The notes under the pieces are model-generated. The model worked only from the letters and a program-made list of their open reading frames with translations. It did no database searches and was not told the DNA's origin. Source: Psammoneis japonica (lineage: Eukaryota). From it: a stretch of 64,000 nt of DNA. Each line of letters starts with the position of its first letter. The first letter of the stretch is position 1. This document shows positions 14,524 to 63,518 of this stretch, in pieces. A program made the position numbers and the translations under genes. The stretch covers positions 62,001-126,000 of the forward strand of contig QPGO01000086.1 in the NCBI GenBank assembly GCA_008632985.1, in the 5' to 3' direction.

Positions 14524-14894
14524 GACACTTTTCTTCTGTTGTCGTTCAACCTCTGGAATTGGAGGTCGTAGTCAGTGTGGTGCTGATACAACTGTAAGAG
14601 TACAGAAAACAGTGACAAATCAAGGACAACATTTACTACGATGGTCGATGTGGTCTCGCATTTCGTTCCTCATTTTTTTCGTTTGTTTCGTTTGACGGTC
14701 ATTGAAGTGATTGACACTTTCCGATCTTTGGACAAATACCGCCAGCTGTAGCTTTTTTGTGTGCTTGTCTGTGTTTTGATGCCGCACTGCTGGCTGCATA
14801 AAAAAATGACGGTCGCTGTCTGTGTGTATGTGCATGCCATCGCTACGAAACACCGAAGGGGATGCACCATTGCCCAGACGTCTTCCAACCATAC

Positions 14895-15560
14895 ACTCAC
14901 AATGACTGTGGCTCTCACAGTGTGAGAGATTCTCACGAGGTTGTGAATTTTCTCTGGCAGAGCCACATGCACTGACATGCCAGCAACTCCTGCAATGTGG
15001 AGGTGGCAACTGCATTGTCCAAAGTTTTCAAAGCTCTCTGCTGACACAGAAATTGAGCACCGCCAATGGTGCACTTCTTTCCAGGTTGCTCCCTGCCCTC
15101 TCTCTCTCTGTCCAGCAGCACCAGAGCTTTCATTGAGAGGGCAATGCTGTGTCCCGCCAGTGTGGTTGGCGACAACGAATGACTGTCACAATGGAGGTGC
15201 ACAAATGTTGCAAAAGTGGTTCAAAAATGGGTTGGCAAAATCTCATTGGATGGGAGGTGCGGCCCGGCCACATGCCACAGAGCAGGAGAGAGAGAAAGGT
15301 TCCCATCTCCCGAAGATGCGAGAGAGTGGCCCGAGTTGCCGTGGCATTGGAGAGGCAGAGATTATGCTGCACTGCTCACTTGGTCCCAAACCTGAAAACA
15401 CAGTGGAGTGAAGTGCACCAGTTTACAGATTGTGGTAAAAGGGATGAGAAAAATGAAGAGAAGAAGTGAGGCGGCATTGACAGCAGGAACCTGTGGATCG
15501 CATCGATCATGTTTGGACTGGAGGGTCTGTCCCCCCATCAGGGGATCTCAATTTCCTCTC
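14895..15560. repeat. TpA/CpG-depleted decayed block B
   Basis: No TA seen by eye between about 14895 and 15361; TG/CA-rich; lies between two normal genes. Confidence 0.7.
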
Positions 15561-15632
15561 AAATTCATTATGATATTCTCGAAGTCGGCAATGGGCGCCA
15601 CCGCTGCCGCGTACCTTTGAACTTTGACCGAC

Positions 15633-16805
15633 ATGACAGTGGGAGGAAGTGGTAATCAGACGACTCTTACTGTTGGATGTGGAGTTCTTGCGGTGTTGTT
15701 GATTTTTTGTGCCTCGCCAGCCTATTCCTGGACAACATCAACACGGCCTTGTAGTTCTCGCTCGCTCAGTCAGTCGAGGATAGCAAGCACAACCTCTCGT
15801 GCGCTTGCCATGAAGAAGGAATCGGATTCACAATCGATCGGACCATTGAAGATTGAATGCTCTAAGCAAGCTCAAGACAAATTCAAGGGCAAAAATGTTC
15901 TCCTGACGGGTGCATCAGGTGGTTTGGGGCGATCTCTGGCTTTGCATTTGGCAGGTTGCGGAGTATCAACACTTGTTCTGAGCGGCAGAAATGAGGAGAG
16001 TTTGAACGAGGTTGCGCAAGAATGTCATAGTATTGCCATGTCCTCTAAACCTCTTGATATTCAAGTTCTTACTTGTGATTTGGGGGATGCAGAGTCAGTT
16101 TCAAAACTGGGAGAAGAAGCCTTGCGCAGAGTGGGAAAGATCGACGTCCTCGTCAACAATGGTGGAGTGTCGAGTCGTTCGCGGTTTTTGGATACAAAAT
16201 ACGAAGTGGATGAAAAGGTTATGCGGATAAACTTTCTATCTGGCGTCAGCTTGGCCAAGGCTCTCGTACCAGGCATGGTGGAACGCAAGAACGGTATGAT
16301 TCTCTGGATTAGCAGCGTCCAGGGACTTGTCGGTATTCCCAATCGAACAAGCTATGCAGCCTCCAAGTTTGCAGTCCAGGGCTATTGTGAGGCACTTCGT
16401 GGTGAGCTGGCATCCAGTGGAGTGTCGGTTCATGTTGCGTCTCCAGGATACATTCGAACGAATCTCAGCCGTTCTGCGATTCGTGGAGACGGAGAAAAGT
16501 ACGGAAAGATGGACGAGACGACTGCCAACGGTAAAGTATTTCTCATTGCCTTTTGTAGTGAAGCCATGTTCACGTGTGAGATGCTATCACTTATCGACTT
16601 ATTTGCACTGTTGTTTCAAATAGGAGCGGACCCGGACGAAGTCGCTGCATCCATTCTTGACTCGGTCGCCAAGGGCAAGGCAGATTTTGTGGTTGCATCG
16701 AGCACGTCTGCCAAGGCTGCGATTTGGTTGCGTCTTTTGGCGCCCTCATTTTTGAACTCAATGCTAGAAAAACGATACGAAAAATCTCTTGCGGAAGAAA
16801 AGTGA
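15633..16805 (+). CDS. Short-chain dehydrogenase/reductase, DHRS7/7B-like; in-frame intron 16531-16623
   Basis: TGASGGLG, NNGG, YAASKFA, SPGYIRT motifs; 93-bp gtaaag...aatag intron removes the non-conserved KVFLIAF...FQI stretch. Confidence 0.88.
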   Translation: MTVGGSGNQTTLTVGCGVLAVLLIFCASPAYSWTTSTRPCSSRSLSQSRIASTTSRALAMKKESDSQSIGPLKIECSKQAQDKFKGKNVLLTGASGGLGRSLALHLAGCGVSTLVLSGRNEESLNEVAQECHSIAMSSKPLDIQVLTCDLGDAESVSKLGEEALRRVGKIDVLVNNGGVSSRSRFLDTKYEVDEKVMRINFLSGVSLAKALVPGMVERKNGMILWISSVQGLVGIPNRTSYAASKFAVQGYCEALRGELASSGVSVHVASPGYIRTNLSRSAIRGDGEKYGKMDETTANGKVFLIAFCSEAMFTCEMLSLIDLFALLFQIGADPDEVAASILDSVAKGKADFVVASSTSAKAAIWLRLLAPSFLNSMLEKRYEKSLAEEK

Positions 16806-28888: not shown

Positions 28889-28954
28889 GGGGTTAGGGTT
28901 AGGGTTGGGGTTAGGGTTGGGGGGTTACGTTAAGGTTAAGGTTAAGGGTTAGGG
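28889..28954 (+). repeat. Interstitial telomere-like (TTAGGG)n array, degenerate
   Basis: ggggttagggttagggttggggttagggttggggggttacgttaaggttaaggttaagggttaggg. Confidence 0.85.
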
Positions 28955-29029
28955 ATGACAAACCTTTGAAGAGAAGCGTAGGCCCTATTGCACTGATCGT
29001 CTCACTGATTTTCGCCAACGTCATTATAT

Positions 29030-31570
29030 ACACGCTGTTCTGTGTGCGCTGGAGCTGAGTTTCAGCAAACAGAGCCCAAGCTGCACACTCAATGTGGACC
29101 ACCAAGAGAAGTGCAACCTTTTTTCCATGCAGAGCACACTGAGTCTTCTTTGTGCACTCTGTTGCCTCTGTTGAGTGCCAGTGCACACATGTCATTCAAC
29201 ACATTGTGGCACATTTCGATGCACCAGCAGCGCTGTGCGGTTCATGGTGTGCGGCAGTCACAATGGTGCTCAGCCAGCACAATGCCACTCACATGTGCCG
29301 TTTCATTGGCTGTGACTGGAGAGTGGCTTGTGGTTCAACTGCTGTGCAGCTGTGTTTGTGTGTTGTGCAAGCATGTGCAGCCCTTGTTGTGCATGACCGC
29401 AGCACTTCTGTGTCATTCCTGCAGCATGCCAACATGGCTCAGCATCAAAATGCATGGCAGCAACCCAAGTTTCCTGTGACACTTTGCTTTGTTGTGCCAC
29501 TCTGCCAGAGTCAAACCTCTCATCTCCTGCTCCCAAGCATGGATCTGTGATTTGGTTGCTCAGCTTTGGGGCAGCACAGCATTCACACCAGCCATCTGGA
29601 AATGACTGCAATCATCATGCACCATTTTTGTTCATCATTGATGCAAGTTCATTCTCACAGTGCTGGCATGATGAGACATGACAAATGCATGGTTGTGTGC
29701 ATGCACAAAGCAAGCACATTCATTGTTTTTGACACCATTGCAAAACACTCAAAATTTGACATGTGATGTCTGCTGACCCTGCTGACAGGCACACTGCACT
29801 GCTTCCACCAGTTGGTGCCAAGCATGGCAATGACAGATGATCTTTCAGAAACAACCCTGGCAACTGGAGTGGCCTTAGAAATGCAGAGACCTTGCACAGG
29901 GGCTCTCCATCACATGCACTCAGTGAGAAGAAAAAGTGGAGAGGGTCAGAAATGTCTGAGATGAGTCAACCACAAGAGGCCAAGGCTGTCAAAGCTGTGC
30001 CTTTCCAACCTGTTTGCAAAGTGGCTGGTGTGAGATTCAAGAGCCTTGTGATTTGTGTCTTGGACATCGTTGCAAGGGGGGGGGGTTCACCCCCTGCTTT
30101 TTGGCTCACTTTTGCCCAAATGGATTGAATTCTTCAGATCAGCATCTTTGATGATTGTCACAAGGCAGAGGAAAGGGCAACACTCAAAAGAAGCAAAAGT
30201 TGGAGAGCTGATGCTTGACTCCTGTGATTTTGACAGCTGTGACAGCATCTTGCTGCAACAGCAGCAGAAACATTGTTCACTCAATTGCAGCAAATCAGCA
30301 ACATCCAGCATCAGCAAGCATTGTTGAACTGCACAGATTTTTTGCTGTGGACTCAATGATGCCTTTTGTGCTCTTGGAGCTCAACATGTGGTTTGCCCAG
30401 AGCACAGGCCTGAAACAATTCCTTTCAGTTGCCAGCGCCCTTGATGAATGGTGGTTGGCAGCAAACCAACAACGCTTGGAGCTTCTTCTTCTCAGATGTC
30501 AGATGTCCTCATCCTGCCAAAGCTCTGCCCCAAACCTTTCATCTTGTGTTTTGCAAATCATTGCAGCAGTGTTTTCTGTTGTTCGTCCAAGTGTGCTTTG
30601 TGAGAAAACAAGGAGCAACAGAGTGTGAGTGTGACATGGATGTGTTGCAAAAGGAGTGATGGCACCATCAAACCAAAAGCACTGAAAGCGTCATCTCTTC
30701 AGACCAATCCCCTTGCCCCGCCAAAACTCTGTTGAGACTTTTCATCTTGCAACTTGAGGCATTTGGTGGTGCTTTTCTGTTCTTTGTTTCAGCACACTCC
30801 ACAAAAAATGAAGAGTGTCAGCACAGTGATGGTGCTTCACAAAAGGTTGGTGGCAAACCAAACACAATGACGAGAGCAAGTCTCTTCTCAGACAATGTCC
30901 CCACAAAACTCCTTTTGGGGCTTTTGACCTTGCATGTTGAGGTTTGTTGTCACATTTCTGCACACCTTGTCTGAGCATGCCTCACAAAAAATGAAAAGCA
31001 ACAGAGCACAAGCATGGCATGGATGCACCATGAAAGGGTGGCAGCAAGCAGCAAACCAACAGCACTGGCACCTCATTCTCAGATGTTCTTGCCCTGCTGC
31101 AACTCTGAGGAGCTTTTCATCTTGTGTCTTGAGCTTTTTGTGGTGCTTCTTTGGCTCACCTGAAGCAAAAAACAACAAAGCATGAGCACAACCACTTGTG
31201 CATGTCACAATGGTGCAATTCTTCATGCACGGCATGTGGCATCAGCAAACTTTTGGCGTGCGTGCCACACGCACCTTTGAAACGTGAGGAACACAAAACA
31301 AGCAAAAGTTGGCAGATGGATCACCTCCATTGCACTCACCTGGATTGTCCAAAGTCACCATTGTTGCCATGTTGCAAAGTGCGCGAAATGTTTTTTCAGC
31401 AGAAAATCACGAGCCAAATTGGCCAAAATTCGAGCCATGTCATCTGGCCTGTGCCAGTGTTTGGAAGACGATCGACAATGGCCAAACTGAAAATGGCACA
31501 GTGCGGCACAACTCGGATGTGTCACTGTTGAAAGGCACTGAGATTTTCAAACCACAGCGCAGTCGACGGA
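29030..31570. repeat. TpA/CpG-depleted decayed block C
   Basis: About one TA (near 29876) seen in ~2.5 kb; decayed internal ~190-bp repeats at 30460-31135; a segment homologous to 41215-41338. Confidence 0.85.
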
Positions 31571-31739
31571 TGGGTGTCTTAACTATCCTTTCCACTATTT
31601 TTTCAATCAACATTTGTTTTGTCCTTTTAATCTTTCATATTCACTATACCTTTTACAGGGGCTTCAATGGAGTTATGATGCTGGAATACTTTCATAACTC
31701 TTTGTGCCCGCATCACTTCTGCAGCTCAATCCAGGCATC

Positions 31740-33231: not shown

Positions 33232-33572
33232 TCATGGGCATCGCAATTCATCATCAATGATCTTGTGCTGGAAAGTTCTATGGCGCACCTCAATAACTGC
33301 AAGATTTGCTTGCAACTTGCAACCGAGAGCAAACACGACCAAACAATCGCGGGTCGTGCGTCGCGGCTCACGCCGCCCGTCTTGTTCCTTCTCCTGCGGC
33401 TCTCTAGTGCTGTCTAGAGATCTTCTAGTGATGGACTGGAATGGCTTTACTAGCGGATGCGCAAGCCTCATTCCCAAAAACCCAAGCTGGAACGGCAGGG
33501 CCTTCCAGTGCCACCCACAGTGCCATGCACTCTTGGGAGGGTGGATGGGTTGAGGCTGGAGGGCTGTGGTGA

Positions 33573-34600
33573 TCAGGCGTCTTGAGGATTCTGAGGGACG
33601 TCAGCATTGGGGTGGAGGACGAAGTTGCCACCGGCAAGCATGTCATGAGCGAAGTTGCGCATGACTGGTTCTGCTTGCAAATGCAGGTGTCGCAACATTT
33701 CGTCGGATCGCCAGCGGCCTGAGAGCCGAATGAGATCGGTGTCAACGCAGGCACAAAGGAGGGCCATTGCCCCAGCGGCACGAAGACACCGAGCGGCAAT
33801 GTCTCGGGTGGTGAAGCCGAGATTAGCCGGACTGAGAGCAGTGACAGCATTGCAAAGCATGCTGGTGATGTCGGCTGGGGACACACGACGCCAGGTGTTG
33901 TTTTGAAAGCAAACACCAAGGGGTGTGTCAGGGAGCGCACCATGGGTGCACAAGTGTTGGACACGGCGGATGAGGGTTTGAGCCGGGCACAGGTGAGGGT
34001 GACCGGAAAGACCCAGCCCCAGAACTTTGCCTTGCACTCCATTTTTCTGGGTGGCAAATGTGAGAGTGGCGAAGGTTGCTGTGTCAAGGTGTGCAAGTGG
34101 AGCTTGCATGGTGACAAGACAAGCACCACCGGACGCAAGCCGGACGTCGGCGAGACGAAAGGGGGTGGTGTCGGATGGTGTTGCGGTGCATTTGCCAGGC
34201 CACAACAAAAAGAAAAAGGTGAGTGCAATCATGTCAGCAATGGCTTGTGTGCCCGGGTCATTGCTGAGGGCTGCGGCGGTCATAATCCACTGCAGCACTG
34301 CAATTGGGACAGGTTTTACGCGGTCTGGGGGTGGATCCTGCTTCTTGTAAAAACGGACTTGCCGGGTGAGACGGAAATCCATTGTGCCTTGGGATGTGTG
34401 GCGCGGATCCGGGGCCCCCATTGCAGCAAACATTTGGCCAACCGAACGTGCGGCATCTTCTCAGCGGTTCTTCCACGGACGGGATTGGCCATCGGCGCGA
34501 GGACTCCTGTGCGGCATCGGTGCAAGAAGACTTGGAGGAAGACAACGGGGTCGTCAACGTCTTTGAGGAGTGGGTCGATGGCCAAAGAGGAGCAGAACTC
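33573..34600 (-). pseudogene. Tyrosine recombinase of the retrotransposon, catalytic Arg and Tyr lost
   Basis: FFFLLWPGKC (expected LLRPGEY), TQKNG, LCP, ARCLRAAGAMAL, GRWRSDEMLRHLH (expected RYLH); overlaps the RNase H frame. Confidence 0.85.
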
Positions 34601-37000
34601 TCACCATTTGTTCCAATGGGTGTTGGCGGCAGAGGCTCGGGAAGAGGTGACACCATGCTGGACGGCATGTTGAGCAGCATTGAGATCACGCATGAACTCA
34701 GCTCTGGTGGAGGCATCCAGAGACACCAGGAGAGTTTCTGCGGATGGCAAAAATTAAAATGGCACAGGAATTCATGGTTGGATAAAGACTGCAGGTGGGA
34801 GGCATCGTCAGCGGCAGTGTCGAGGTGTCCAGGCAAGCAGTCATGCAACCCCAAGCAGTGATGGCAGCGTTGATGGTGGGATTGGCATCGAAGCAACCGG
34901 GAGGCGGGTTTGACGGTGGTGGCAGCACGTTTACATTGCCAATGCATGGTGCCTGAATTGTCGGTGTGTGAAAGGTCAGTGTGTTCACGGATGTCAAAGC
35001 AGTTGGCGGCGCCGCAGGACTGGATGACACTGCCGGCAAGTTCTGGGTCTGTGTTGGTGATGGGACCTCGCGGGTTGGAGAAAGTGGAGAGTTGACTGCT
35101 GACACTTTTGGGAAAAGGCAGTCGCCACACTGCGGGACCCGCATCTCTCTGTTGACAGTGTCGGCAATTGCCGAAACAGAGAGTGGCTGCTCCAGGTGCT
35201 GTGGCACTGGTTGGTGGAAGGACGCCGCCTGCGCCGTGACCTGCAGCATCATGACAACCGGTGAGTGTTGGTCTCAGTGGGACCAACTCTTGAGTGCAAA
35301 CGGGTCGGGTGTCTAGGGTAGATTCTAGATCCCGAAAGTCATCCAGTGCGCTGTGCGCAGTGGCGGAGATCCGGACGCATGAGTCCGGCGTGGCATGTCG
35401 GAGATTTTCTTGGAGTGCTGAGAAGAGACCCCGGGAGCCGGGCATGGCAATGCTCAAAGAGCGCAGCTCTCCCAGCAGCTTCTGACAATCAGAGACGGTG
35501 GCACGTTCACGTGTGTGGAGGAAATCCTTGTGCAGCGTTGTACGAAGTCGGGCATGCCGACAGGGCATGAGCCGGATGGTCATGGCGCGAGCATCTGTGA
35601 GCCATCCCAGACGTGTTCCAGCTCTAGGTGGGACCTCGCACTGCTGAACTGTGACACAATTATTTTTTATCACCCGTCGCATGTTTCGCACGTACATTTC
35701 TACGTGTTCTATTATAAAAAATTGTTCCACACTGCCTGTTTTGCGAAGCCAAAGGCTTTCTGTTGTCTGCACTTGTGTCAATAAAAATGCGCTGGGTGTG
35801 TTCTTTAATGTCTAAAGAGTGTGCCCGGGCATGCTGTAAAGAATGCACTTCAAGTGTGGAGGAGGAGATGCGTTCGCAAAATTGCCTCTTTTTCTGTTGG
35901 CGATCATTCACACATCCATTGCTTGACAATTTTACTGTGGAGCTCGCACATAGAATTCTGCGGGCCCAATGTCACAAAAAGTCCCACCTGGGACTGGAAC
36001 CCGTCCCCAGGACTTCTTTCTGTGTGGACCATGTGGCATCACCCTGGCGGAGCTTCTTGACGGAGATGGGCTCCTTGCGGGTGGCTGGGTCGTGTGCATT
36101 GAGTGGGCGAAAGACGTCATCGAGAGCGTGCAGCATCACACGGTGGACGTTGCGCCGGGCTCGTTTGGATCCTTGCGCAGCACCAAGGAAGTCATCTGCA
36201 TAGATGTCGATGCATTGCAAGCGGCGGCACTGACGCGGTCGAAGGTGTGGGTCAGGCGTGTCAGGAATGGGCACGGCCTGTGAAGCTGCGGCAACTTGTG
36301 GTGGTTGGTGCTTTGGCGGGCGGCTGTCTAAGAGCGCTTCCAGCGGATGTGGCGGCGCTTGGACATTGTGCACCAAATCCAAATTGGTGACATCGGCGAC
36401 AGTTTCCGTTGATGTGCAGAACAATGGCGGGGAGTTGGCCCAGCCCACAGGCAAGCGTGTTGGAATTGCAACCAATGGTGGCTCTCCCGGTTGGTTCGGG
36501 AACACCACACCAAGTGCAGGAGCCTGTTCTGGTGCAACTTGCATGCGGCAACAACCATCGGCCAGGTCTATCTTCACAAGATAGACGGTGCCTTTTTTAG
36601 GATCGGCAAGGAGGATGCGGCGTAGAAGGCAGTCAAAGGCATGTCCAAATTGCATTGCTTCCATTGCAGCATTGGGTTGCATGGAAGTGTTCAGCCCACA
36701 GCAGGTGCAGTCCACGATGGGACAGGGACGTCGACCATGTTGAGGCACAACGCCAATTGGACTTGGGCGAAGACCGGGGGTGTGCTGCACTTCCTCGTGG
36801 GGGGCAGGGGGACGACAACCCAAAAACCTTTTTCAACCATGTCAGCCATGTCTTGGCGCAAAAACTCGATGTGTTCGTAGGCGGATTTGTGTGGACCCCT
36901 GGAGATGCTAGCGTCTAGCTCAGCATGCGTCCATGGTGCATCGGCGGCAGTGATGGGGGCACCTCGGCACTTGCAAGTGCTCAGAAGTCGATGAGCTGGG
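34600..37000 (-). pseudogene. Reverse transcriptase-RNase H of the retrotransposon, interrupted by a MITE
   Basis: SPIGVVPQ, KIDLADGCCR, RLPVGWANSPPLFC, IYADDFLG, KEVLG/WLTD, GCHDAAGHGAGG, ITNTDPELAG, ADDASHL. Confidence 0.88.
35610..36005. mobile_element. 396-bp MITE nested in the RT gene
   Basis: 25-bp imperfect TIR gacgtgttccagctctaggtgggac / gtcccacctgggactggaacccgtc; TSD ccca (35606-35609 / 36006-36009); removing it restores the RT peptide KEVLG-WLTD. Confidence 0.88.
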
Positions 37001-37239
37001 TGTTGCTTGACTCGATGGAGTGGACCCCAATCGCCTACGACGCAGTGGCGCAGCATCAGTTTGCATGTGCTCACCCAATTTATCATCAAAGATTGTGGCA
37101 GCAACATCCTGTCCACGGGCAGTGGGGCGGGTGCACTGCCTCTTGAAACTCTCCACAGTCGGGGGGTTGTGGACGCGACAGCGAATCGGCCATCGCGGGT
37201 GAAGGCTCTCGGCTCCAAGTCCCTGAACTTGGGCCGTTG

Positions 37240-39150
37240 CCGAAGACCTGTTCGGTCTTCCAGTTCTCCTCACCCCAGGTGAAAAGGGTGGCCTGTTCGT
37301 CTTCTGTGTGGTCATTGCGATGATCACAGGACGAGCCACAGTTGGTGTCACATTGCCCTTTGCAATGGTGGGGGAAGCAATGAGGGCGACCTTGGGCATC
37401 TTTGGGGAGGTCGATGTTGTCCCTTGCTCATCGGTTTTTGACATCGCGTGACCTGATGTTGGGGCAGTCACGGAGCGTGGCAAAGCGGTTGTCGCAGGAA
37501 GGATTGCGGACCACGCTGTTGCTTCCTGCAGCTTGGCTGTCAGGGGCCATGTTGTTGGCAGGCTGGCGTTGAGATGCTGGGGCCGGTGCGGCCCCCAGCA
37601 CAGAACTGGGGTTGGCAGCTTGCATGCCAGCAGGCAAGTGCAGACGCCAGTGGACGATTCCTTTAGCCACTTCAAACACAACGTTGAAGGGTGTGAATGG
37701 TGACGGGTGGAGTGAGGCTTCTTGAGCCTTGAACCAATGGCGAACTTCAATCTGCACATGGTGTTGAAAGTCCGCGGGAAGAGTTGGGCACCAAGTGGCC
37801 TGTGCTGCCAATTCATTGGCATGCCGGTCCATGTCTTGACGTTGACGGGTGAGCCACTGGACAACTGGATGGTTGGCCCCAAGCGAAGCAGAAAGCACCA
37901 GACGGCATCCATCGCACAACTGCTGGGCGGCTTGCATTGTCGTTGCCATGAGCGCCTTGTCTGGAGCTTCCAGGATTTGAGTGTCCTGGAGGGACGGGGC
38001 CGCAGTGCCGCCATGAATGTGCACATGCATGGCCTTGCGGCAGGCAATCTGTTCAGCACTGTCTGGTGCAGTGATCCCAAATTGGAAGGGGGCGATGCCT
38101 TGGGTGGGCTCGTCTTGATTGTGACCAGCAAATTTGAGCTGCACGAGCTTGGTGATGAGACTGACGGCAACAGGTGCGTCGAAATGGACGGCCATTGCCT
38201 GGCGTTGCTCGTCAATTGCATTTTGGACAACTGCCAGGCGGCCTGTCTTTGGCAATGCGTGGGCGGCAGTGCCATCTCGTTGAGGACGTGGCACCAATTC
38301 ATGAGCTTGGTGACACCGAAAGGTCCCCAAAATTTGTTGGGCACCTTGCCCCGGGCAGCTGCTTGCTGACGTGCTGCAGCATCAAGTCGAAGTTGGCATT
38401 GCTCAGTGGTGAGCCCTTCAATGGCTTGTGTGACCGGCTGGAAGTGCTGCGCAGTGGGTGGCGCATGGCCCAGTCTCCCAGGGATGTCACGCGACACCTT
38501 GGCATCAAAGAATTGAATGAGGGCTTCATTGGGGGGGTGTGTCATGACAGGCCAAGGTCGTGTCACAACAGATGCCATTTGGTTGTTGGCAATGGCACAG
38601 CAGGCGACGCGAAGAAAATCGAGCTGTGGTTGAATGGCGGCCACTTTGTTGGCTGCTGTGGCGGCGCCGTGCACCCGCTGATGGGCTTGTTTTGGGTGCA
38701 AGGGTTGTGCCAACAAGAGCGGCACAAACTCAAATGGCACATGCACCGCGTTCCCAGTTTGCACAACCTCTGAATTTTGTGCATTCTCAGCCAGATGCGG
38801 ATGCAGGCCGTCCGCATTGTTGGTGACATGCTCCAGGAGTGCAGCATGAGTCAGCACCCTAGTCCCCTGCTGTGCTAGATTGAACGAGTCGTCTCCAAAT
38901 TCGACCAGAGTGAACTGTCCACGGGTTAGATCACCTGCCATTGCATGCGTCTCACTGTCCCAAGGTTCGGCGGGCCCAACCACGGTCATCGGACAAGTGG
39001 TGACGCGGTGGAGGACTTGAATCTGTCCTTCGTCCGCTGCACCAGCCTCTCAACAGTGTGCGATGACTGCCATCGGCTGATCATGACTTAACGCCGCTGC
39101 AACTCGCCCATGTGGTGCCTGGTCGGAGAATCGAACTCCGGTCAACTGTC
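37240..39150 (-). pseudogene. Gag-like ORF1 of the retrotransposon
   Basis: Long frameshifted ORF upstream of RT, ending in a Cys/His knuckle (CFPHHCKGQCDTNCGSSCDH at about 37320-37380). Confidence 0.65.
39113..39140 (-). other. tRNA 3'-end-like fragment (T arm, acceptor 3' strand, discriminator A, CCA)
   Basis: Minus strand reads CGGAG-TTCGATT-CTCCG-ACCAGGC-A-CCA with canonical spacing; no matching 5' half. Confidence 0.5.
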
Positions 39151-40294
39151 CAGCGGCTTCTTGCTCTTTGTTGCTCTTCGGAAGAATGAGTGAAACAAGT
39201 GAGAGAAAGGAGCAAAAAACTGTCATTTGCTCGCCAAGCTCGCGCAAGCACGTTCAAATTTGAATTCAAACGGTTTGCATGACCCAATGGTCAAAAACGG
39301 GTCATTTGCCTCGTCGCACTGCACAAGGTGGGTCGTGTGGTGGAGGTCACGTTGGGTGCCTGTGGAGCCTGAAGACGCTGGTCAACAGTGGCCAAATGGT
39401 GCAATTTGGATTTGTCGCTGTTGAAAGGTGCTTAGATTATAAACAACAGTGGGCATTTCCATCATTTGAAGCTCGCTGTGAAATTGCTTGGTGCGCCACC
39501 AAAAGAAGAAGAAGAACTCAGCCTCAACATGGGCTTTGTGCAGCGCCCCCTTTCTCACGGGGTTGCTGGAGTGGCCGCAGCTTTTGTTTTTCTGTGACAT
39601 TATTGGAGACAGCTGCCTTGATGTTGGCTTCTCCAATCCTTTGGCTTGCCATTGTTTTGCACCCAAGGAAGCTTCCGGGGTCAGCAGGGCAGTGATCACA
39701 GACAAGCATCGCGTTGCTGTCATCCTCTTCACTTGCTGCAACAACCCATTGTGCAGCGGCCATCTTGCCATGCTCAAGGAACACCTTGCATCATGGTGAG
39801 ATTCACAGGGTGATTTTCTGGGTGATTCTTGCTTCTTTCAAAAGCACTGCAATGCTCAGTTGGCTTCTTGTCTTCGTGAGTGTGGGCAGGCCTTTGCCGT
39901 CGGCGCTTGCCGTCCTCTTGGAGCCACCGCCAGAGGAGCAGCAGGAGCTGCAGGTTGGTTGTTGTTGCACCTGTCTTCTGCCTCCAGCAAAGCACCTCCA
40001 CAAGTGCGTTGCACACTGCTGATGCACAATGAATGAGTGAAGCCAGTCTGAGCTGCTTCTGGGCTGAACAACAGAGTCGTTGCCTCACTCTGTTTTTCTC
40101 GTTGACGCTGCCACTGTCGTTGGTGGAAGAAAGGGCTGCTCTCTGTGGTTGAGCAGCATTGCTCATCTCAATGCAGCAGCTTCCCAAAAGGACATCTGCT
40201 GTCACAACCACTGCCAGCAGCAAGACTGCTTTCTTCTCAATGGGCGGGCGGGGTTGGCAAGCAGAGCAAAACAGAGTGAGTGTCTGTGGGCACG

Positions 40295-40807
40295 TCACAA
40301 TGTGGTGAATGTAATTTTTTTTGCATTGATTGTTGACAAAATCTGTCATGCACATGCTGGCCAATTTTGTTCTCCAACATCAAATTGCAGCTGCAAAACA
40401 GCTTTCATTTTTGCTCTTTTTTGGTCATCGCACACGTTGCTCTGCACATCTGCTTTTGGACAAATGTGCCTTTTTTGCATGCTCAGCTGTTTTTTTTTTT
40501 GCAAAGCCCTTTTTGCCTTTGTTCTGTTTGAAGTTGGTCACAATGTGGTGAATGCAACATTTTTTGCACTGGTTCTTGACAATTTTTGTCATTGTGTGTC
40601 ATCTGTTGTGCACGTGCCAACCAACTTTGTTCTCCAATGTCAAGAAGCTGCAACTGCAAAGCAGTTTTCATTGGTGTTGTTCTTTTTTGGCCATTGCACA
40701 CATTGCTCTGCATCCATTTTTAGACAAATGTGTCTTTCACATGATGTTCAGCTGTCTTTTGCAATGCCCTGTGCTTGCCTTTGTTCTGTTTTTAAAATTG
40801 AAGTTGG
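40295..40807 (+). repeat. Diverged tandem duplication, period 243 bp
   Basis: tcacaatgtggtgaatg...gcctttgttctgttt..gaagttgg starting at 40295 and 40538. Confidence 0.8.
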
Positions 40808-42020
40808 CTGCCCTCACTTCCTCCTCCCCACACACTGTTCACATGTTGCTTTTTTTGTGCCCCCCTTCACTGCAAAATCTGCATTCCTGCCTTTTCAATG
40901 TTGCCAGTTCTTTTGCCACAAATCATCAGCACTTTGTTTTTTCTTCATTGACACATTGCTCCTTTCTGCACAATTTTCAGCACCATTGCTGCACACACAC
41001 AATCACTTGCACACTTCACACCAGTGCACCGGCTCCTCAAACTTTGAAAAACAAGAGTGCATGCTGCTGTTGCAACTCACATGGGCGGGTTCTGTGCATT
41101 GCCTCCAATCAGCAACTGACCATGGCAGTGACCAACTTCAACCCCCCCACCCCTTCAGCCAAGGAGGAGGTCAGCCCTGATCCTTTGTTTGCACCCGGTG
41201 ATGAGGTTGATTTGGTGGATGGACTGCCTCCATTGTGCTTGTCTGGATCATCTGAAGCAGCCATTGTTGCCAAATTGCAAGTGCAGCAAAACATTTTTTC
41301 AGCAGAAAATTGCAAGCCAAGTTGGCCAAATTCAAGCTAAAGAAAAGCAGAGACCAAGCTTGACCACCCTTGAATGTGATGGCAATGTTTGACATCAAGT
41401 GCAGCACCTGCTCTCTGCCCCATTGTTGCCAAGGCAAGGCCAAGGCAACAAAACAACATGATGCCTTTGCACCACCTGAAATGCACCAACATCACAGGGC
41501 ACCAATGAAAAGATGAGTGTGAATGGAGGTTTGGCAAGCTGTTTGAAGACATGGGTGCAGCTGGGCTGATGCACACAATGCCAAAGAGCACAGCACACAA
41601 AGCCCCAGCTTTCATGCCTCAGACAAATGATGGGGCAGCAGGTTGAAGGCTGAAAACAGATGATGCGTGTGTCACCAGCCTGCACAGGAAGGCAAACAGA
41701 AGCTGAATTGGGCTGCCATCAAAAAATGTTTGCAGCACAAAAATGCCTCATGATGCCACAATGCTGCTGCTCAAAGTGTGCTCAAGAGAGGCCGCTGGGG
41801 AGCTGCCACCCACAACAAAGCAGACGCCAGTCAAAGGGCACTCACAAAAAAGCAGACACCAGTCAAAGAGCACTTTGTGTTTCCATGCACAAAGATCAAA
41901 GTGCACAATGGGAATCATTCGAAAATGTCGCGTGGGTCACAACCAACATTTTGCACGAGGAAAAACACAAAATCGTGTAGAAATGCACACAATGTCACAC
42001 GAGAGAGTGACCAGAGCTAA

Positions 42021-42134
42021 TGACTTTTCGGGAACTGAGTTGAAATGCTGTCTGATTGACTGCATTGGCCTTCACCATGTGAGTCAAAATGCCGTCAATC
42101 AGACAGCATTTCAATTGATTTCCCGAGAAGTTGA
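42021..42134. repeat. Long imperfect palindrome (~46-bp arms)
   Basis: ttgaaatgctgtctgattgac and gtcaatcagacagcatttcaa are exact reverse complements within longer imperfect arms. Confidence 0.85.
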
Positions 42135-43992
42135 CATTCGCACACGGATGGATGGACAGACTGACGGCAATTGTTTTTAGTGCTCTCCTGCACAATTTCT
42201 GCGTGATGACTCTCAGGACCCGAATGACTCCCATTGCCATGTGGCAAATGTGGAAAAGAGTGTGCAAGTCAAAGACGGGGCAAGTGGAGAGTTGAACGTG
42301 TGATGTCATGCAGCAAATGAGCTTTGTGAAGGAAAAGAAGGATCAGCTTGCAAGGCTGAAGCAGCACAAGATGGCAGCAGCAGCAGAAAAGGAGGCAATG
42401 GAGATGTGAAAATGCACGCCACAGCTCTCTCCTCATTTTCTGTCTTTTTTCTTTGTGCTCCCAGACAGCACTGGCACCAGCAGCACCACAATGCATGAGA
42501 TGATGCATTGTTTGCAGCAAGGTGCAAGAGACAACACTGTTGACACCAGCAGTGGCACCAGCACCTGCGTGCAACAGCTGCTGCAGCGGTGCCAGAGCAG
42601 CGCCCAGGGCAGGAAGAGAGACACCAGAGCTACTGCCAGCAATGCCATCACTGGCAATGGCGCCTTTGCTGGCAGCAGCCACTGCTCATGTCAAAGAGGG
42701 GGGCATGAGTGGCACCACCTTTGTCACCTCCACCACCAGCCAGCAGCACTTTGCTGGCAGTCAGAGCTTCAAGCACGGCTGGAACAATGACTGTTGCAGA
42801 AGTTTTGTGCCCCACAGCTCTCACATGCCTTTTTCCACTTTGCCCTGAAGCTGTGGCATGGTTGCCAAGCCTGTGCAAAATGAAAAGAGACAGCTGAATG
42901 ATGCCACCACACATTGTCACCAAACACCTTCTTGGACCAGTGGTGGGACTGCCCACCATCCAGCTGCAGCTCTCACTTGCAGGCGGTGTTGGGACAAACA
43001 TCATGGGATGTGCTGCTCCAGGCAACAAGGCACTGTCTTGTTTGCAGGGTGCTGCTGCTGATTGCACAAGAGTGTTTGTTTTCAACAAATCAACATTGCC
43101 AGGAAGAAGCCTGCCTGTGGCTGGCAAGAGCATCACTGCTGTGGGTTGTGGTGCACTGACTGTCATCCTCCTTGCACCCAGATTGAGGTTGAACATTGTC
43201 CCCTGCAGCAGGTGCTGGCAGTCATTGATGCAATGCTTGAAATGCTGTGGCAACCAGCAGCACAGCACAAGAGAGCCTGGAGAAGCAGCAGCTTCACAAT
43301 CTGTTGAGAGTGCAGTTGATGTCCCATCCAGTGTGTGCTGTTTTTGCCATTGCCAGACACTGGTCTCACATGTTTTCACACACTCTTTCAACAGGGGTGG
43401 GCAACAATCTGTGAAGCAGCAATGGCAACTCAGGGATGCCATTGCTGTGGAATGTTCAAATGGGGTGCATCACAAGTGCTTCCCATTTCTTTGGCATGAC
43501 GACAAGTCAGTTTTTGACAAAGAGGAGGAGGCAGCATGTGCCAGCAGGGGTTGGCCAAACAGTGCAGCAAAGGGGTCATGCCAATGCAGGGTAAACAGCA
43601 TGTGCAACTGCAACACAGCCTCATTTTTAGAATTTTGCTCATTCCACAATGTATCCCATTCCCTCCAGCTAGACATCATGGCGCATTTCGACCTCAGCTG
43701 GGAATGTCAGCACCTTGGACCCCGTTTCTTTGTTCGAAATCATGGAATCCACAAACAAAATGCGGCAAGGTGAGTGTCGAACGAAATGTGAAATAAATGA
43801 CCTCTTTTGGCTCTTCAAATGATGTCACGGAATGCCATGGTACCAAGATTTTTTTGGAATTTGGGTTCATGTCGCTGTTCGATGAGAGACGGAACATCTC
43901 TTTTTCCCCGTCTTGTCCCGTTTTCATTTTATTTTAGGTATTTTCATCAGGTATGCAAATATGTACACTATTATGCAGTATCAGCTCTGTGT

Positions 43993-47435: not shown

Positions 47436-47858
47436 ACGTTTGCACCGGTAGGTAGGTTTGTAGTACGCAATTCTCTGCTTCGAGTTTTGGAGGGACCAGG
47501 GATAGTTTGAAGTTTGAAGACAGTTAGATGCCAAGCACGAACGAATCTCTACGACTGTTCAATACAAAGTTTCTATCGCTTTCTTGTTCTAGTGAAACAG
47601 GAAGTATCTCGCATTGACTGCCACCCTGTAGGAAGAGCACTCAAAATTTACCCGAGAGTGGATCTTTCACCCAATTGGATCCAGTTCCTGCGGCCTTCAT
47701 GTACTTTAATGTAGACCAAAGATTCTGCCAGATCCAAGGGTAGTACACATACTGAACATTGTGCTTCTTGCATATCTCACGAACCGTTGGAGCAATAAAG
47801 GGGTACCAGGCTGAACTCATGCGAGGGAACAAGTGGTGCTCCACCTGAAAGTTGAGTC
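47436..47858 (-). repeat. Near-identical second copy of the desaturase 3' end and flank (matches 48521-48945), ending at an N
   Basis: Same peptide LNFQVEHHLFP...DPLSGKF with a few SNPs and indels; N at 47859. Confidence 0.85.
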
Positions 47859-48438: not shown

Positions 48439-48727
48439 AACGAACCCTTTAAGTAATGAAATGACCCCTATAAGTGACGAAACGTCATCACCGACCGTCT
48501 GACCCCCCTGCTAGCCAGTTACGTTTGCACCGGGAGGTAGGTTTGTACGCAATTCTGTACTGCTTCGAGTTTTGGAGGAACACCGCGGATAGTTAGAAGT
48601 TTGAAGACAGTTAGATGCCAAGCACGGACGTTTCTCTACGACTGTTCAATACAAAGTTTCTATCGCTTTCTTGTTCTAGTGAAACAGGAAGTATCTCGCA
48701 TTGACTGCCACCCTGTAGGAACAGCAC

Positions 48728-50229
48728 TCAAAATTTACCCGAGAGTGGATCTTTCACCCAATTGGATCCAGTTCCTGCGGCCTTCATGTACTTCAATGTA
48801 GACCAAAGATTCTGCCAGATCCAAGGGTAGTACACATACTGAACGTTGTGCTTCTTGCATATCTCACGAACCGTTGGAGCAATAAAGGGGTACCAGGCTG
48901 AACTCATGCGAGGGAACAAGTGGTGCTCCACCTGAAAGTTGAGTCCACCCGTGATGCATCCCGCAACAAACCCACCATAGGTGCAGGAGGTCTCCACCTG
49001 AGACTTGAACCAGCAAACCTTTTTGTTTCCGTCACGAGCCGCGGCGGTGGGATCGCGGTCGACGTTTTCAAAGTTGTGCGAGAGAGAAAAGGGAATGGCC
49101 AAGGTCAAACTCTCGACAACGCCCATGAGAAGAATGTATCCGGCAGCGAGAAGTGGTTCGTCCTTGAGGTGGTAAAAGGGTGCCACAACATTGGTCAGAA
49201 TGTAAAGCAGCCTCAACATGACGGCGAATTTGCGTCGAGAAACGACAAAGTTACTCTCGAACTTCATGCCAATGCTGCTGGCACCACGCTGCTGCAAATC
49301 CATAATCTGGGGGTTGAACACCTCGGAAACCCAGTATCCAGCGAGAACGAGGGGATAGTAAAAGACCTGGAACCTGTGGTACCACCGGCGAGAAGGATGT
49401 CCGAGAGGATAATCGTTAAAGAGCATCATGGGCTCAGCACCGTAGCTGTCGGGATCCTTCTCACAGTGGTTGGTGTAAGAATGATGAGTCCAGTGCTGTT
49501 CGATCCATAGCCACTTGCTACCACCGATAAAGTCAGCTCCGAGACCCAGGAGATCATTGATGCGGTGATTCTTGGAACAAGCTCCGTGGTTGGCATCGTG
49601 CTGAACATTGAGACCGATAAAGGCCTGAGACATGCCATACAGCACAGCAAGCCATAGAGAAGGACCAGAAGTTACCCAAATGTACTGAAGGCTGAAAAAG
49701 AGACCAATGTAAAAGACGGCACGAGTGTACCAGCCGGGGGTACCAAACTCCTTGCCCCGATTCACAATCTTGAACACTTCCCTCTTGATTTCTCTTTCAA
49801 AGGGGGTGTCAAACTCGTACCTGAACGTAAAAAAAACAATAGCAACGGGCTGTGAGTATCTTATCGATTCACTTACGCCTTAGCACAGATAAAGGACACT
49901 GGTTTCTTCTCTTTCTTCCAGGTCTATACTCACTCGGTTTCATAGTCAGCCACTTTTCCTACACGCTTCATCTTTTCCAAATGATGCCTGGTGTGGTAAG
50001 GATGAATCATTTTGTATTGAACAGTGACGTCGTTTCCGCCAAAGACCTGAATCGTATCACCACCCGGATGGTCAAAGTCCTGAATATCATAAATGATGCC
50101 GTCAATTGCAATCTCGTGGTTCTTCAAGGTGGACATGGTGCAGATGCGTTCCTGCTCGGCGGCAGCATCCTGAACAGCTTCCTCGCCTTTTGCTTTACGC
50201 TGGCGGAGAACATCGGCATCCGGCGGCAT
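48728..50229 (-). CDS. Front-end fatty acid desaturase, delta-5 type; intron 49821-49933; 462 aa
   Basis: Cytochrome b5 HPGG; His boxes QHDANH, QHWTHH, QVEHHLFP; spliced junction EYEFDTPFEREIKREVFKIV resembles diatom delta-5 desaturases. Confidence 0.92.
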
Positions 50230-60399: not shown

Positions 60400-61107
60400 T
60401 TAAGCTCCCATAGTACAAACAGCATTGCACAATGCTCCAACCAAATGCGTAAGCAAGGTTAGACTAACCACCTTCACCCTATCCTCGTGCGGCAGTTCCG
60501 TAATTCCACGCAAAACGCGGTGAACAACCTGATCGTTGAATTTTTGTGGGACAGACTCTCTCAGAAAGCAACGCAAGGAAATAAACTCACAAAACATGCG
60601 ATATAGTTGTGAACTCCCTTCGTGATTGCCCAAGGCGAATAGGATTCCCTCGAGCATTGGCGAGAAGACTTCTTGGCCCTTCTCGGTACTAACAAAGAAA
60701 ACAAAGAGCATAGCTACCGCGTTCATCATTAATGCATTGTTTGGGAAAGCATGCATGATAGTCAAAGAGAGTTCGAGGCCGCCTTGCCCAAGGATTTGAT
60801 CCACGTATTCTTCGCGTTTCGCGGCGTCGTCGCCTTCCGCGAGGACACAACCAGTAAGAGATACTAAGAGACAGTAGTAATAGTCTTCGTATGTCGAAGT
60901 CAGTCCTTCTTGTTCTCGCTTCATGACATCTACCAAGGCTTCAAGCAAACCCGCGTCAAGTAGATATTGGGGAACCTGAACGTGTCCGTCGTCGCCATAA
61001 AAAAACACTTTGTAAATGTCTTTCACGGCCGCAAGCGACCGGTTCCGAATCTCTTCAAGCTGCACAAGGAGATGCTGTTCTGATGAGGAAGGCGTCACTT
61101 CCGTCAT
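60400..61107 (-). CDS. Helical (ARM-like) hypothetical protein, tandem paralog 1, C-terminus divergent
   Basis: MTEVTPSSSEQHLL..EEIRN shared with the two neighbours; lacks their HHC..ADCS tail. Confidence 0.65.
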   Translation of the reverse strand: MTEVTPSSSEQHLLVQLEEIRNRSLAAVKDIYKVFFYGDDGHVQVPQYLLDAGLLEALVDVMKREQEGLTSTYEDYYYCLLVSLTGCVLAEGDDAAKREEYVDQILGQGGLELSLTIMHAFPNNALMMNAVAMLFVFFVSTEKGQEVFSPMLEGILFALGNHEGSSQLYRMFCEFISLRCFLRESVPQKFNDQVVHRVLRGITELPHEDRVKVVSLTLLTHLVGALCNAVCTMGA

Positions 61108-61555
61108 GGTCGTAAGCCGAAGCGAGTTGCAAGTTGCAATAGCGCTTTGTGGTTTTTGTTTGTTGCGATCACGATTTTGTTGTGTAGGATTTCGGGATTT
61201 GGAGGGACGAGGGCTAACAATTTTTTGGCGCGCTGCCCGATGTCGTGACTCAAACGGTTCTGTTGGGAGGTCATTCACGAACGTCTTCTCATTCTTGCTC
61301 TTTTCCTAACTAATTTACCAGCGGTGTCGGCGATTGACTTTGAGCGTTTTACGACGCTAACTTGCGGGCAACCACTACACATGTCATTTACCGACAACGA
61401 TGATCACGAAGGACTTATTATGTTCTAAGTAGAAGTAAACATGTTCAATGTTGCTGAACGCAGGAAATTACAAGGCCTCAAACGTCAAACAACATTCGAG
61501 TAAGCTACTACATTCTTGACAGCTACATAAATCTATAACATACTCGCCCTTGTAT

Positions 61556-62299
61556 TCAAGCAGCCGGACTGCAATCCGCATCCTCACAATGATGGTATTC
61601 GGAAAGTTCAATCAATTCTTGGTAGGTTTCTTCTCCAACCAAACACGCAAGCAAGGCTCGACCACGGTCCTGCACATCTTCCTCGTGCGGAAATTTTGTA
61701 ATTCCATGCCAAAGGAGGCGTACAGCTTGTTTGAGTACTTCTTGTGGTAGAGACTTCCCCCAGAGCAAAGCTCCCATGAAATCGACACTCATGCAATAGA
61801 TCTCTTCATTGCCGTCGTGATTGTCCATTATGAATAGAACAGCCTGGAACATTTGGTGATAGACTTCTTGGCCTTTTTGGCAATGGGACAAACAAAACAA
61901 GAGTCCAATTACCGATTTCATCATGAATGCGTCGTCTTCAAACCATTGCATGAGAATCAAGGTGCTTTCGAGACCACCTTTATCAAGCACTTTGTTCGCG
62001 TATTCTTCTCGTTTCGTGTCGTTGTCCTCTTGCGCCATGATGCAACCAACAAGAATTCCTGCGATACGGTGGTAATAATTCGGAATCTGCCCCTCTTGTT
62101 CTCGCTTCAAGGCGTTTACCATGACTTCAAAAAAACCAGCATCAAGTAGATATTGGGGAACTATTCTGTCGCCGTCAAACAACGCTTTGCGAATATCTTC
62201 CACGGCTGCACGCGACTTTTTCGGAGCAGTGGGGTTTCGAATCTCTTCGAGCTGTGCAAGGAGATGCTGCTCTGACGAGGAAGACGTCGTTTTCGTCAT
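61556..62299 (-). CDS. Helical (ARM-like) hypothetical protein, tandem paralog 2
   Basis: 247-aa ORF collinear with 62775..63518. Confidence 0.8.
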   Translation of the reverse strand: MTKTTSSSSEQHLLAQLEEIRNPTAPKKSRAAVEDIRKALFDGDRIVPQYLLDAGFFEVMVNALKREQEGQIPNYYHRIAGILVGCIMAQEDNDTKREEYANKVLDKGGLESTLILMQWFEDDAFMMKSVIGLLFCLSHCQKGQEVYHQMFQAVLFIMDNHDGNEEIYCMSVDFMGALLWGKSLPQEVLKQAVRLLWHGITKFPHEEDVQDRGRALLACLVGEETYQELIELSEYHHCEDADCSPAA

Positions 62300-62774
62300 G
62301 GTGATTAGCTCTCAGAATCAATCGAGTTTCTGCAGAAATTTTGTGAGGAGTGAGGAGGTTATCGCGAGTTGGCGGGAGTTCTCTAAAGCGAATTCTTTTG
62401 CGCGGCGCGGGCGCGCGCGATCCACGTCGTCTCGTGACTCCTCCTCAAGACGCATTTCCACTCTAGAGTAGAGAGTAGAGTAGGGCTAGCTACTAGAGTG
62501 CATTCACGAATATATTCTTGAGATGAAGGATATGGTGTGCAATTGACTTTTAGCGTTACGACGGTAACTTGTGGGCAACCACTAAACATGTCATTTGCCA
62601 ACAATGATGAACACGAAGGGCTTACTAGGTTCCAAGTTGAAAGGTCGTTGAACGCGAAACATTACTAGGGCCTAGGCCTCAAACGACATTCGTGAAATTG
62701 TTAAATAAGAAGAGCCTGTTCTTGTTAACTGCATAAATCTACATTCCGAAATCATTCGCGCTCTTGCACAGTAT

Positions 62775-63518
62775 TCAAGCAGCCCGACTGCAATCCGCAT
62801 CCGCACAATGATGGTATTCGGAATGTTCAATCATTTCTTTTGCTGTTTCCTCTCCAACCAAACACGTCAGCAAGGCTCGACCACGCCTCTGCACATCTTC
62901 CTCATGCGGAAATTTTGTAATTCCATGCCAAACGTGTTGTATAGCTTGTTGGTGTAGTTCTTGCGTTAGAGAATTCCCACCGAGCGAATTTCCCATGAAA
63001 TCGACACACATGCAATAGATCTCCTCATCGCCGCTGTGGTTGCCCATTATGAATAGAATTCCCTGGAAAATTTGCATAAAGACGTCTCGGCCTTTTTGGC
63101 AGTGGACCAAGGAAAAGAAGAGTCCAATTACCGATTTCATCATGGATGCGTCGTCTTCAAACCGATGCATGAGAAACAAGGTGCTTTCGAGACCACCTTT
63201 GTCAAGCACTTTGTTCGCGTATTCTTCTCGTTTCGTGTCGTTGTCCTCTTGCGCCATGATGCAACCAACAAGAATTCCTGCGATACGGTGGTAATAATTC
63301 GGAATCTGCCCCTCTTGTTCTCGCTTCAAGGCGTTTACCATGACTTCAAAAAAACCAGCATCAAGTAGATATTTGGGAACATCTCCGTCGCTGCCAAGCC
63401 ACGCTTTGCGAATATCTTCCGCGGCCGCACGTGACTTTTCTGGAGCAGTGGGGTTTCGAATCTCTTCGAGCTGTGCAAGTAGATGCTGCTCTGACGAGGA
63501 AGACGTCGTTTCCGTCAT
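62775..63518 (-). CDS. Helical (ARM-like) hypothetical protein, tandem paralog 3
   Basis: 247-aa ORF, 1219 bp from paralog 2, with homologous flanks. Confidence 0.8.
   Translation of the reverse strand: MTETTSSSSEQHLLAQLEEIRNPTAPEKSRAAAEDIRKAWLGSDGDVPKYLLDAGFFEVMVNALKREQEGQIPNYYHRIAGILVGCIMAQEDNDTKREEYANKVLDKGGLESTLFLMHRFEDDASMMKSVIGLFFSLVHCQKGRDVFMQIFQGILFIMGNHSGDEEIYCMCVDFMGNSLGGNSLTQELHQQAIQHVWHGITKFPHEEDVQRRGRALLTCLVGEETAKEMIEHSEYHHCADADCSRAA

Follow-up and report, generated by a model that had tools for sequence, protein, structure and literature searches.

Which process could strip almost every TpA dinucleotide from a few sharply bounded blocks of a eukaryotic genome while the genes beside them keep a normal share? 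The question is raised by a stretch of 64,000 nucleotides from the diatom Psammoneis japonica (NCBI GenBank assembly GCA_008632985.1, contig QPGO01000086.1, positions 62,001 to 126,000 of the forward strand; hereafter the window, in whose numbering all coordinates are given), in which a DIRS-like retroelement and four further blocks are nearly free of TA. A first inspection based on the nucleotide letters (the sequence-only reading) had attributed this to hypermutation of TpA to TpG or CpA in repeated DNA. The explanation favoured here, which we consider likely, is a real and near-saturating TpA to TpG/CpA transition hypermutation of transposon and repeat DNA, acting on either strand within the genome. 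This assessment covers the reality and the nature of the mutational process, not the enzyme.

The limits of the blocks were set from the gaps between TA dinucleotides. The background observed/expected ratio (O/E) of TA is 0.57, and TA accounts for 4.0% of dinucleotides in the flanking genes. Five near-TA-free blocks (A, B, C, D1 and D2; Table 1) contain 52 TA over 14,420 bp, with block-wide O/E values of 0.01–0.16 for TA and 1.6–2.0 for CA. The longest runs without TA measure 1704, 1196, 961 and 847 bp, compared with a mean background gap of 25 bp. The near absence of TA described in the sequence-only reading for one block and three others was thus recovered, the gaps placing the former at 33451–43592 (D1 together with D2) and the latter at blocks A, B and C. 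When the window was divided into 1 kb bins, TA O/E was 0.00–0.12 at 29–31 kb and 37–43 kb versus 0.4–0.9 in the flanks. In the bins from 37001 to 43000 the loss of TA (O/E 0.03–0.09) is accompanied by a gain of TG (1.45–2.20) and CA (1.61–2.22); a similar loss and gain at 29001–31000 spans two bins only.

Within the blocks the frequencies of TA, CG, TG and CA sum to 0.227–0.256, close to the background sum of 0.242, and the share of TG plus CA rises from 0.146 outside to 0.19–0.24 inside. The counts thus balance, and the lost TA and CG now exist as TG and CA. The GC fraction is 0.48–0.57 in the blocks versus 0.47 in the background. The edges are sharp: the first 200 bp bin outside a block contains 3–16 TA in all seven readable flanks (background 8.0), in agreement with the proposed confinement of the process to discrete inserted or repeated DNA.

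Block D1 was identified as a full-length retroelement of predicted DIRS-like type, with a reverse transcriptase (RT) and a putative Cre-fold tyrosine recombinase. It is called DIRS-like because of the RT homology together with the fold match of the recombinase of an intact relative, P0005. The RT segment has 2574 homologues at E ≤ 0.001 in a representative library (best E 5.6e-88) and retains a YxDD-type motif; its match to Pfam RVT_1 is sub-threshold (E 0.016, with 6e-06 to 3e-03 for intact relatives), and full-length D1 yields nothing above the Pfam cut-offs. For the recombinase open reading frame (ORF), 8000 candidates were scored, and 714 of them are homologues at E ≤ 0.001, of at most 73% identity. 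No Pfam match was obtained for this family, either from the window or from intact relatives, and its profile gave no matches to PDB sequences. The structure model of P0005 (predicted local distance difference test score, pLDDT, 83.7) matches Cre recombinase with an E value of 5e-07 and also matches Xer and lambda integrase, the template-modelling (TM) scores being 0.54–0.68 across the matches. Through this fold D1 agrees with the DIRS order in having a tyrosine recombinase and no DDE integrase. No terminal repeat pair, inverted or split direct, was found bounding 33451–39100; such repeats may have been erased by the hypermutation. ORF1, in a gag-like position, gave no match in a word-index homology search, and its homology was recovered by tblastn alone, which aligned it to the ORF1 of fetched relatives at 25–31% identity over about 265 amino acids (aa). 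Complete ORF1 sequences of relatives have 691–763 aa, and the ORF1 of the window is of native length.

Relatives of D1 were used to establish its original composition. From 259 confirmed metagenomic loci related to D1, 80 were fetched for comparison, and TA O/E was 0.38–0.88 in every one of them. The frequency of TA is 0.0356 ± 0.0061 in 27 full-length relatives (minimum 0.0249), compared with 0.0053 in D1 after removal of an insertion described below. Outside this insertion D1 contains 28 TA in 5265 bp where about 187 are expected, a deficit with a Poisson P of ~1e-27 even at the frequency of the lowest relative. The large frame without tyrosine pointed out in the sequence-only reading is ORF1, which lacks this residue over all 709 aa from stop to stop; the ORF1 of 21 of 21 relatives contains 2.1–4.0% Tyr (P ~3e-07 at the lowest rate). 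Since the relatives keep normal TA, the loss is not the native composition of the family.

The direction of change was judged at 492 conserved columns, defined as those in which at least 60% of relatives agree. Of the 11 columns with conserved Tyr, the window has Cys or His in eight, Tyr in two and Arg in one, whereas the mean rate of replacement by Cys or His in relatives is 1–2% (binomial P ~2e-11). The sequence-only reading would have failed had intact relatives already carried Cys or His at these codons, and they carry Tyr. Five of the six motifs on which it had based the direction were upheld. The Tyr of GEY (GKC in the window) and that of LRYLH (LRHLH) are each present in 118 of 120 relatives, and the Leu of DLE (DPE) in 50 of 57. 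In DG(F/Y)YR, now DGCCR, the first variable position is Phe in 125 and Tyr in 20 of 148 relatives and the second is Tyr in 139 of 148. The proposed change of YIDIYVDD to CIDIYADD is plausible only, with Tyr in 62 of 140 and Val in 98 of 142 relatives. The change of GYHD to GCHD had to be abandoned: Ala occupies the position in 40 of 65 relatives and Tyr is not among the four commonest residues there. The LRYLH Tyr, now His, was present without exception in a set of 40 intact recombinase relatives and, by its position as in tyrosine recombinases, is likely to be the catalytic nucleophile.

The 492 columns contain 114 differences. Single-step transitions account for 14 at TpA (eight to TpG and six to CpA), 21 at CpG with two more that are ambiguous, and 6–7 in other contexts, four of these being of A>G or T>C type. 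The remainder are 35 transversions and 35 multi-step changes; many of the latter come from the start of the third ORF, whose first 60 residues are misaligned and fall inside the insertion. The comparison of 14 TpA events with four A>G or T>C changes elsewhere supports both the direction (TA to TG or CA) and the TpA specificity that had been proposed. The 52 surviving TA dinucleotides also have a distinctive context: CTAG is found for eight of them versus 88 in the background (odds ratio 3.9, P 0.0025), CTAA or TTAG for 11 versus 128 (odds ratio 3.9, P 0.0006) and ATAT for none versus 164. This could mean that the mutator acts less readily where G follows the A, or that recent C>T changes at CAG have made new TA.

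Both strands are affected, as the sequence-only reading had supposed for a mutator acting on DNA. The sense-strand changes are almost evenly divided between TpG and CpA, and the gains over relatives on this strand are +0.026 for CA and +0.023 for TG; with values so nearly equal, a single-stranded transcript or complementary DNA (cDNA) is ruled out as the edited molecule. Copies of repeats in the blocks were also compared with each other, six host paralogue or duplicate pairs in the window serving as controls. Five pairs of block copies show 20 exchanges of TG for CA or the reverse in 723 aligned columns, compared with seven in 3245 columns for the six host pairs (odds ratio 13, P 3e-10). Transitions and transversions number 100 and 37 between block copies versus 311 and 311 between controls. 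A TG/CA exchange is the pattern expected of two copies that have each resolved one palindromic ancestral TA (or CG) independently and on different strands, and the excess of such exchanges suggests that the copies were mutated where they lie, once duplication had taken place.

A second process overlies the first. CG O/E is 0.21–0.32 in blocks A, B, C and D2 and 0.70 in D1, and 12 of 47 conserved Arg columns contain Cys, His, Trp or Gln in the window versus 3–10% in relatives. An independent, apparently slower decay of CpG to TpG/CpA is superimposed on the TpA process, and its probable cause is deamination of 5-methylcytosine. This separable component, underplayed in the sequence-only reading, contributes a large part of the excess of TG and CA. 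Two relatives separate the processes. The recombinase relative P0007 has eight TpA-type and no CpG-type changes in 226 conserved columns, and the RT relative P0212 has 16 CpG-type and no TpA-type changes in 132 columns; the processes are therefore separable. The decay of CpG is common in the D1 family and independent of the TpA process. The latter appears to be the faster of the two, since about 85% of the TA in D1 is gone while CG O/E still stands at 0.70. Strong CpG-type decay without TpA-type change was also observed in the RT relatives P0252 and P0262 and in the loci L012, L043 and L044. A single 'YpR-step deaminase' responsible for both losses was considered and rejected: such an enzyme would also turn CA and TG back into TA and CG, and P0007 and P0212 separate the two losses.

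P0007 also provides an independent occurrence of the TpA signature. In this relative, located on a 1465 bp contig, four of five conserved Tyr are replaced by Cys or His, the sole case of at least 40% among the 120 recombinase relatives listed. Its TpA-type rate per column is 0.035, compared with 0.032 in the window and a maximum of 0.028 in the other 118 relatives. At the four shared conserved Tyr columns the residues in the window and in P0007 are Y/C, C/H, C/Y and H/C. Since the replacements differ by column, the two were mutated independently. Among 150 RT relatives one, P0219, has no Tyr and nine TpA-type changes in 125 columns.

The statement in the sequence-only reading that no description of such a process was known is superseded by a 2026 preprint, in which TpA>TpG/CpA hypermutation is reported from Illumina sequencing of mutation-accumulation lines of Bigelowiella natans (Mettrop et al., bioRxiv 10.64898/2026.01.13.699255; this and all further statements on this source refer to the part of its text available to us). 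There, 231 of 302 nuclear single-nucleotide mutations lay in an integrated giant virus (nucleocytoplasmic large DNA virus, NCLDV) and virophage, and 230 of the 231 viral-region mutations were A>G or T>C, all at TpA; they were seen in some lines only. The B. natans genome was found to contain 124 clusters depleted of TpA and enriched in CpA and TpG, and its TpA-depleted coding sequences were enriched for RT, endonuclease-RT and DDE domains. An ADAT2-like protein was proposed as the DNA adenine deaminase (10.64898/2026.01.13.699255), so that the adenine-deaminase mechanism suggested in the sequence-only reading had already been put forward. A search of that text for terms found no occurrence of CpG and no mention of retrotransposon classes or tyrosine. 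Our search of the literature gave no other description of TpA hypermutation and no report from a diatom. The phenomenon itself has thus been described once, in another lineage; the signature in the window adds a further case, at saturation and in a diatom.

The two cases share transitions restricted to TpA that yield TpG or CpA according to strand, a bias towards GC, and TpA-depleted clusters; locality to foreign or mobile DNA is evident there and, in the window, for the retroelement D1. They differ in the host, which is a chlorarachniophyte there and a diatom (a stramenopile) here, and in the best-defined target, here a tyrosine-recombinase retroelement. The depletion also differs in degree, TA O/E being near saturation here versus 0.45 in the NCLDV region of B. 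natans, and a component of CpG decay is present here. Finally, the signature is read here from standing sequence and there from mutations observed in real time.

Several explanations other than hypermutation in the resident DNA were weighed. Joint suppression of CpG and UpA with an excess of TG and CA is described for RNA viruses (PMC3829696, in the part available), and the element could by analogy have evolved to avoid UpA and CpG. This is the least probable of the alternatives, in view of the ordinary TA content of all fetched relatives, the replacement of conserved and probably catalytic Tyr residues, and the presence of only 0–2 TA per 1.4–2.5 kb in non-coding blocks. Hardly more credible is editing of UA in a transcript by an ADAR- or ADAT-like enzyme, followed by fixation through reverse transcription. 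In its favour, D1 is a retroelement, and ADAR-type enzymes prefer a U 5' of the edited A (10.64898/2026.01.13.699255, Discussion). Changes on one strand would be predicted, however, against the near-equal TpG and CpA counts; blocks without retroelement features are affected too, the TG/CA exchanges lie between tandem copies in place, and the integrated DNA viruses of B. natans mutate in situ. The blocks are known as assembled sequence, and in principle a modified base could have led to systematic errors in base-calling or polishing: the true DNA would contain TA (and CG), miswritten as TG and CA wherever a repeat-specific modified base occurs. Modified bases can indeed give context-specific errors in nanopore sequencing. 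We nevertheless regard an artefact as very unlikely, since the public relatives P0007 and P0219 show a similar loss of Tyr to Cys or His, a single modification would have to be misread equally as TG and as CA, the unmutated insertion sits within D1, and in B. natans it was Illumina data that revealed the signature, in the form of de novo mutations.

A rival of greater weight, though still unlikely, concerns the chemistry and not the reality of the process. TpA is palindromic, so A>G and T>C cannot be distinguished by sequence, and a TET/JBP-type hydroxylase could mark the T of TpA in silenced repeats as 5-hydroxymethyluracil (5hmU) or 5-formyluracil, T>C then resulting from mispairing with G or from mis-repair. 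Dinoflagellate 5hmU prefers TpA and 5-formyluracil mispairs with G, both in favour of thymine chemistry; 5hmU itself pairs normally with A, which counts against it. No evidence of 5hmU in diatoms came to light, no search having been aimed at it. The available part of a study of dinoflagellates ties 5hmU made by a dedicated enzyme to transposon silencing (PMC11572971), a further point in favour, whereas the sole study of the signature itself proposes deamination of adenine (10.64898/2026.01.13.699255).

Other observations weigh against hypermutation as we describe it, or narrow it. The ancestral states are taken from relatives that are 40–73% identical, and the TpA events are few; in a codon alignment of 75 relatives five conserved TA positions could be scored, three of which are now TG or CA, a number too small to strengthen the case. 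The repeat status of blocks A, B, C and D2 and the sparing of unique DNA were judged within the 64 kb window. No strand-coordinated runs of TG or CA were found along the blocks (runs test, z −1.7 to +0.4), a result that lends no positive support to a processive deaminase of single strands. Lastly, the insertion within D1 is unmutated, so the process is not continuously active on all DNA of the block. Either this insertion arrived after the hypermutation or it resists that process. It separates the RT from the downstream pol, and its deletion restores a single reading frame of the two. It is flanked by the similar short words GTCCTGGGGA and GTCTGGGA (minus strand).

With hypermutation of the resident DNA retained as the likely explanation, the course of events may be pictured as follows. 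Transposon and repeat DNA would have inserted among ordinary host genes and then been mutated inside the genome, TpA becoming TpG or CpA on either strand until near saturation. A loss of 85–99% with sharp edges is unlike spontaneous decay, and for this reason the process appears to be driven by an enzyme. If the process is real, DNA adenine deamination is its most likely chemistry, a preference that we hold tentatively: A preceded by T in DNA would be deaminated enzymatically to inosine, which is read as G, on both strands of silenced or foreign DNA. Action would be episodic or limited in time, given the unmutated insertion in D1 and the restriction of mutations to some B. natans lines. Because TpA>TpG/CpA changes create no stop codon, the heavily mutated element keeps open frames of 300–700 aa, and all six frames of the blocks are rich in long ORFs. 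The codons TAA and TAG would be removed and never made, and an in-frame TGA would arise solely from TAA. The element would then be inactivated by missense changes alone, through the loss of Tyr residues including the invariant Tyr of the recombinase and those of the RT motifs.

Comparison with established systems places this process apart from them. In fungal repeat-induced point mutation (RIP), C>T changes fall mainly on CpA and give rise to TpA and AT-rich DNA with many stops. Like RIP, the process in the window consists of transitions on both strands at the DNA level, appears to be restricted, within rather sharp boundaries, to repeated or mobile DNA, and would leave transposons inactivated. 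Unlike RIP it destroys TpA, raises GC and can create no stop; instead of the excess of TpA and the AT-richness by which RIP is recognized, the blocks have the low TA and elevated GC given above. Deamination of 5-methylcytosine gives the same products, TpG and CpA, and is probably the second component seen here, but leaves TpA untouched. The ADAR and APOBEC enzymes are comparable as deaminases that hypermutate selfish nucleic acids, ADAR with a preference for 5' U; their substrates are RNA or single-stranded cDNA and their changes are strand-asymmetric, whereas those in the window are strand-symmetric and in resident DNA.

The coordinates of the blocks, of the parts of D1 and of a flanking gene are collected in Table 1.

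Table 1. Near-TA-free blocks, parts of retroelement D1 and a flanking gene in the window.
Feature	Coordinates	Strand	Remarks
Block A	1–1433		2 TA; CG O/E 0.25; tandem repeats of 33 and 163 bp; extends past the window start
Block B	14892–15569		4 TA in 678 bp; CG also depleted
Block C	29029–31580		2 TA in 2552 bp; CG O/E 0.21; two diverged segments in common with D2
Block D1	33451–39100	−	Predicted DIRS-like retroelement; 42 TA, 14 of them in the later insertion
Tyrosine recombinase ORF (putative)	33573–34460	−	LRYLH Tyr changed to His; GEY to GKC
pol C-terminal part	34258–35615	−	2 of 3 conserved Tyr now Cys/His; Leu to Pro (CCA) at DLE; phmmer matches to 66 long relatives; presumably RNase H, judged by motif
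Insertion	35616–36000		About 385 bp; absent from all relatives; 14 TA; GC 0.45
Reverse-transcriptase segment	35972–36832	−	DGCCR, CIDIYADD; 3 of 4 conserved Tyr now Cys/His
ORF1 (gag-like position)	36920–39049	−	709 aa stop to stop; 0 Tyr
Block D2	39101–43592		Unclassified repeat-bearing DNA; 12 TA in 4492 bp; CG O/E 0.27
Fatty-acid desaturase gene flanking the blocks	48728–49879 (stop-to-stop ORF)		Identity at most 74% among the matches listed

The window has a GC content of about 48% and is rich in ordinary eukaryotic genes, among them those for MATH-BTB, EF-hand kinase, cyclin, short-chain dehydrogenase, lipase, SET, fatty-acid desaturase and tyrosinase proteins. The flanking desaturase ORF has at least 120 matches, and the 10 listed ones that bear a readable organism name are all from diatoms: Mayamaea, Fistulifera, Pseudo-nitzschia, Nitzschia, Cylindrotheca (two), a metagenome-derived Bacillariaceae genome, and truncated names resembling Rhizosolenia, Staurosira and Odontella. 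On the strength of this one gene, B. natans was rejected as the source of the window. Block B directly precedes a stop-to-stop ORF with a short-chain dehydrogenase domain (15621–16805). D2 contains tandem copies as well as the segments that it has in common with block C. When 50 ORFs of the four blocks other than D1 were searched against Pfam, no credible domain emerged (best E 0.015–0.045, to unrelated families), and an Rfam scan of the window gave no matches. A telomere-like array of 10.5 copies of GGGTTA, its own TA intact, lies at 28889–28954, 75 bp before block C; it could be an old chromosome end or part of a terminal-repeat element. The segments 47436–47858 and 48521–48945 are 95.6% identical, and the duplicate ends exactly at the sole N of the window (47859), which suggests a join made during assembly or the collapse of two haplotypes and not biology. 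Three paralogous ORFs in tandem at 60400–63626, with 67–83% DNA identity and no Pfam match, served as controls for the substitution pattern.

Two further observations concern the biology of the D1 family. ORF1 and RT share a frame in the window, with four stops within 30 codons between them, and in the relatives L003, L009, L011, L016 and L047 ORF1 and pol are likewise in one frame, ORF1 being mostly terminated by TGA; this arrangement suggests that pol may be expressed by stop-codon read-through in this family. Among the relatives L002–L080, many metagenome contigs are about 6.0–6.4 kb, one element long, and the position of the recombinase gene varies as if circularly permuted, as might be expected if the element occurs in circular or tandem form.

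Only one earlier report is known of TpA-specific hypermutation of foreign DNA, that of 2026 from a single chlorarachniophyte (10.64898/2026.01.13.699255). If the process is real in a diatom, it would be a widespread eukaryotic process and not the curiosity of a single species. It is conceivable, and we propose it with still more reserve than adenine deamination as the chemistry, that diatoms and chlorarachniophytes, and possibly much of the stramenopile-alveolate-rhizarian (SAR) lineage, share a dedicated genome defence that edits TpA in double-stranded DNA. Its agent would probably be a DNA adenine deaminase of a kind not so far known from nature, acting in bursts and to saturation on newly recognized mobile or viral DNA; inactivation would be by missense alone (loss of Tyr and changes of Ile, Leu and Val), with GC raised and no stops made, as a mirror of RIP. 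A natural TpA-specific DNA adenine editor could then be sought in a group with genetically tractable models. For annotation, blocks free of TA, having neither TAA nor TAG and encoding no Tyr, would give rise to long spurious ORFs and escape the domain-based annotation of transposons.

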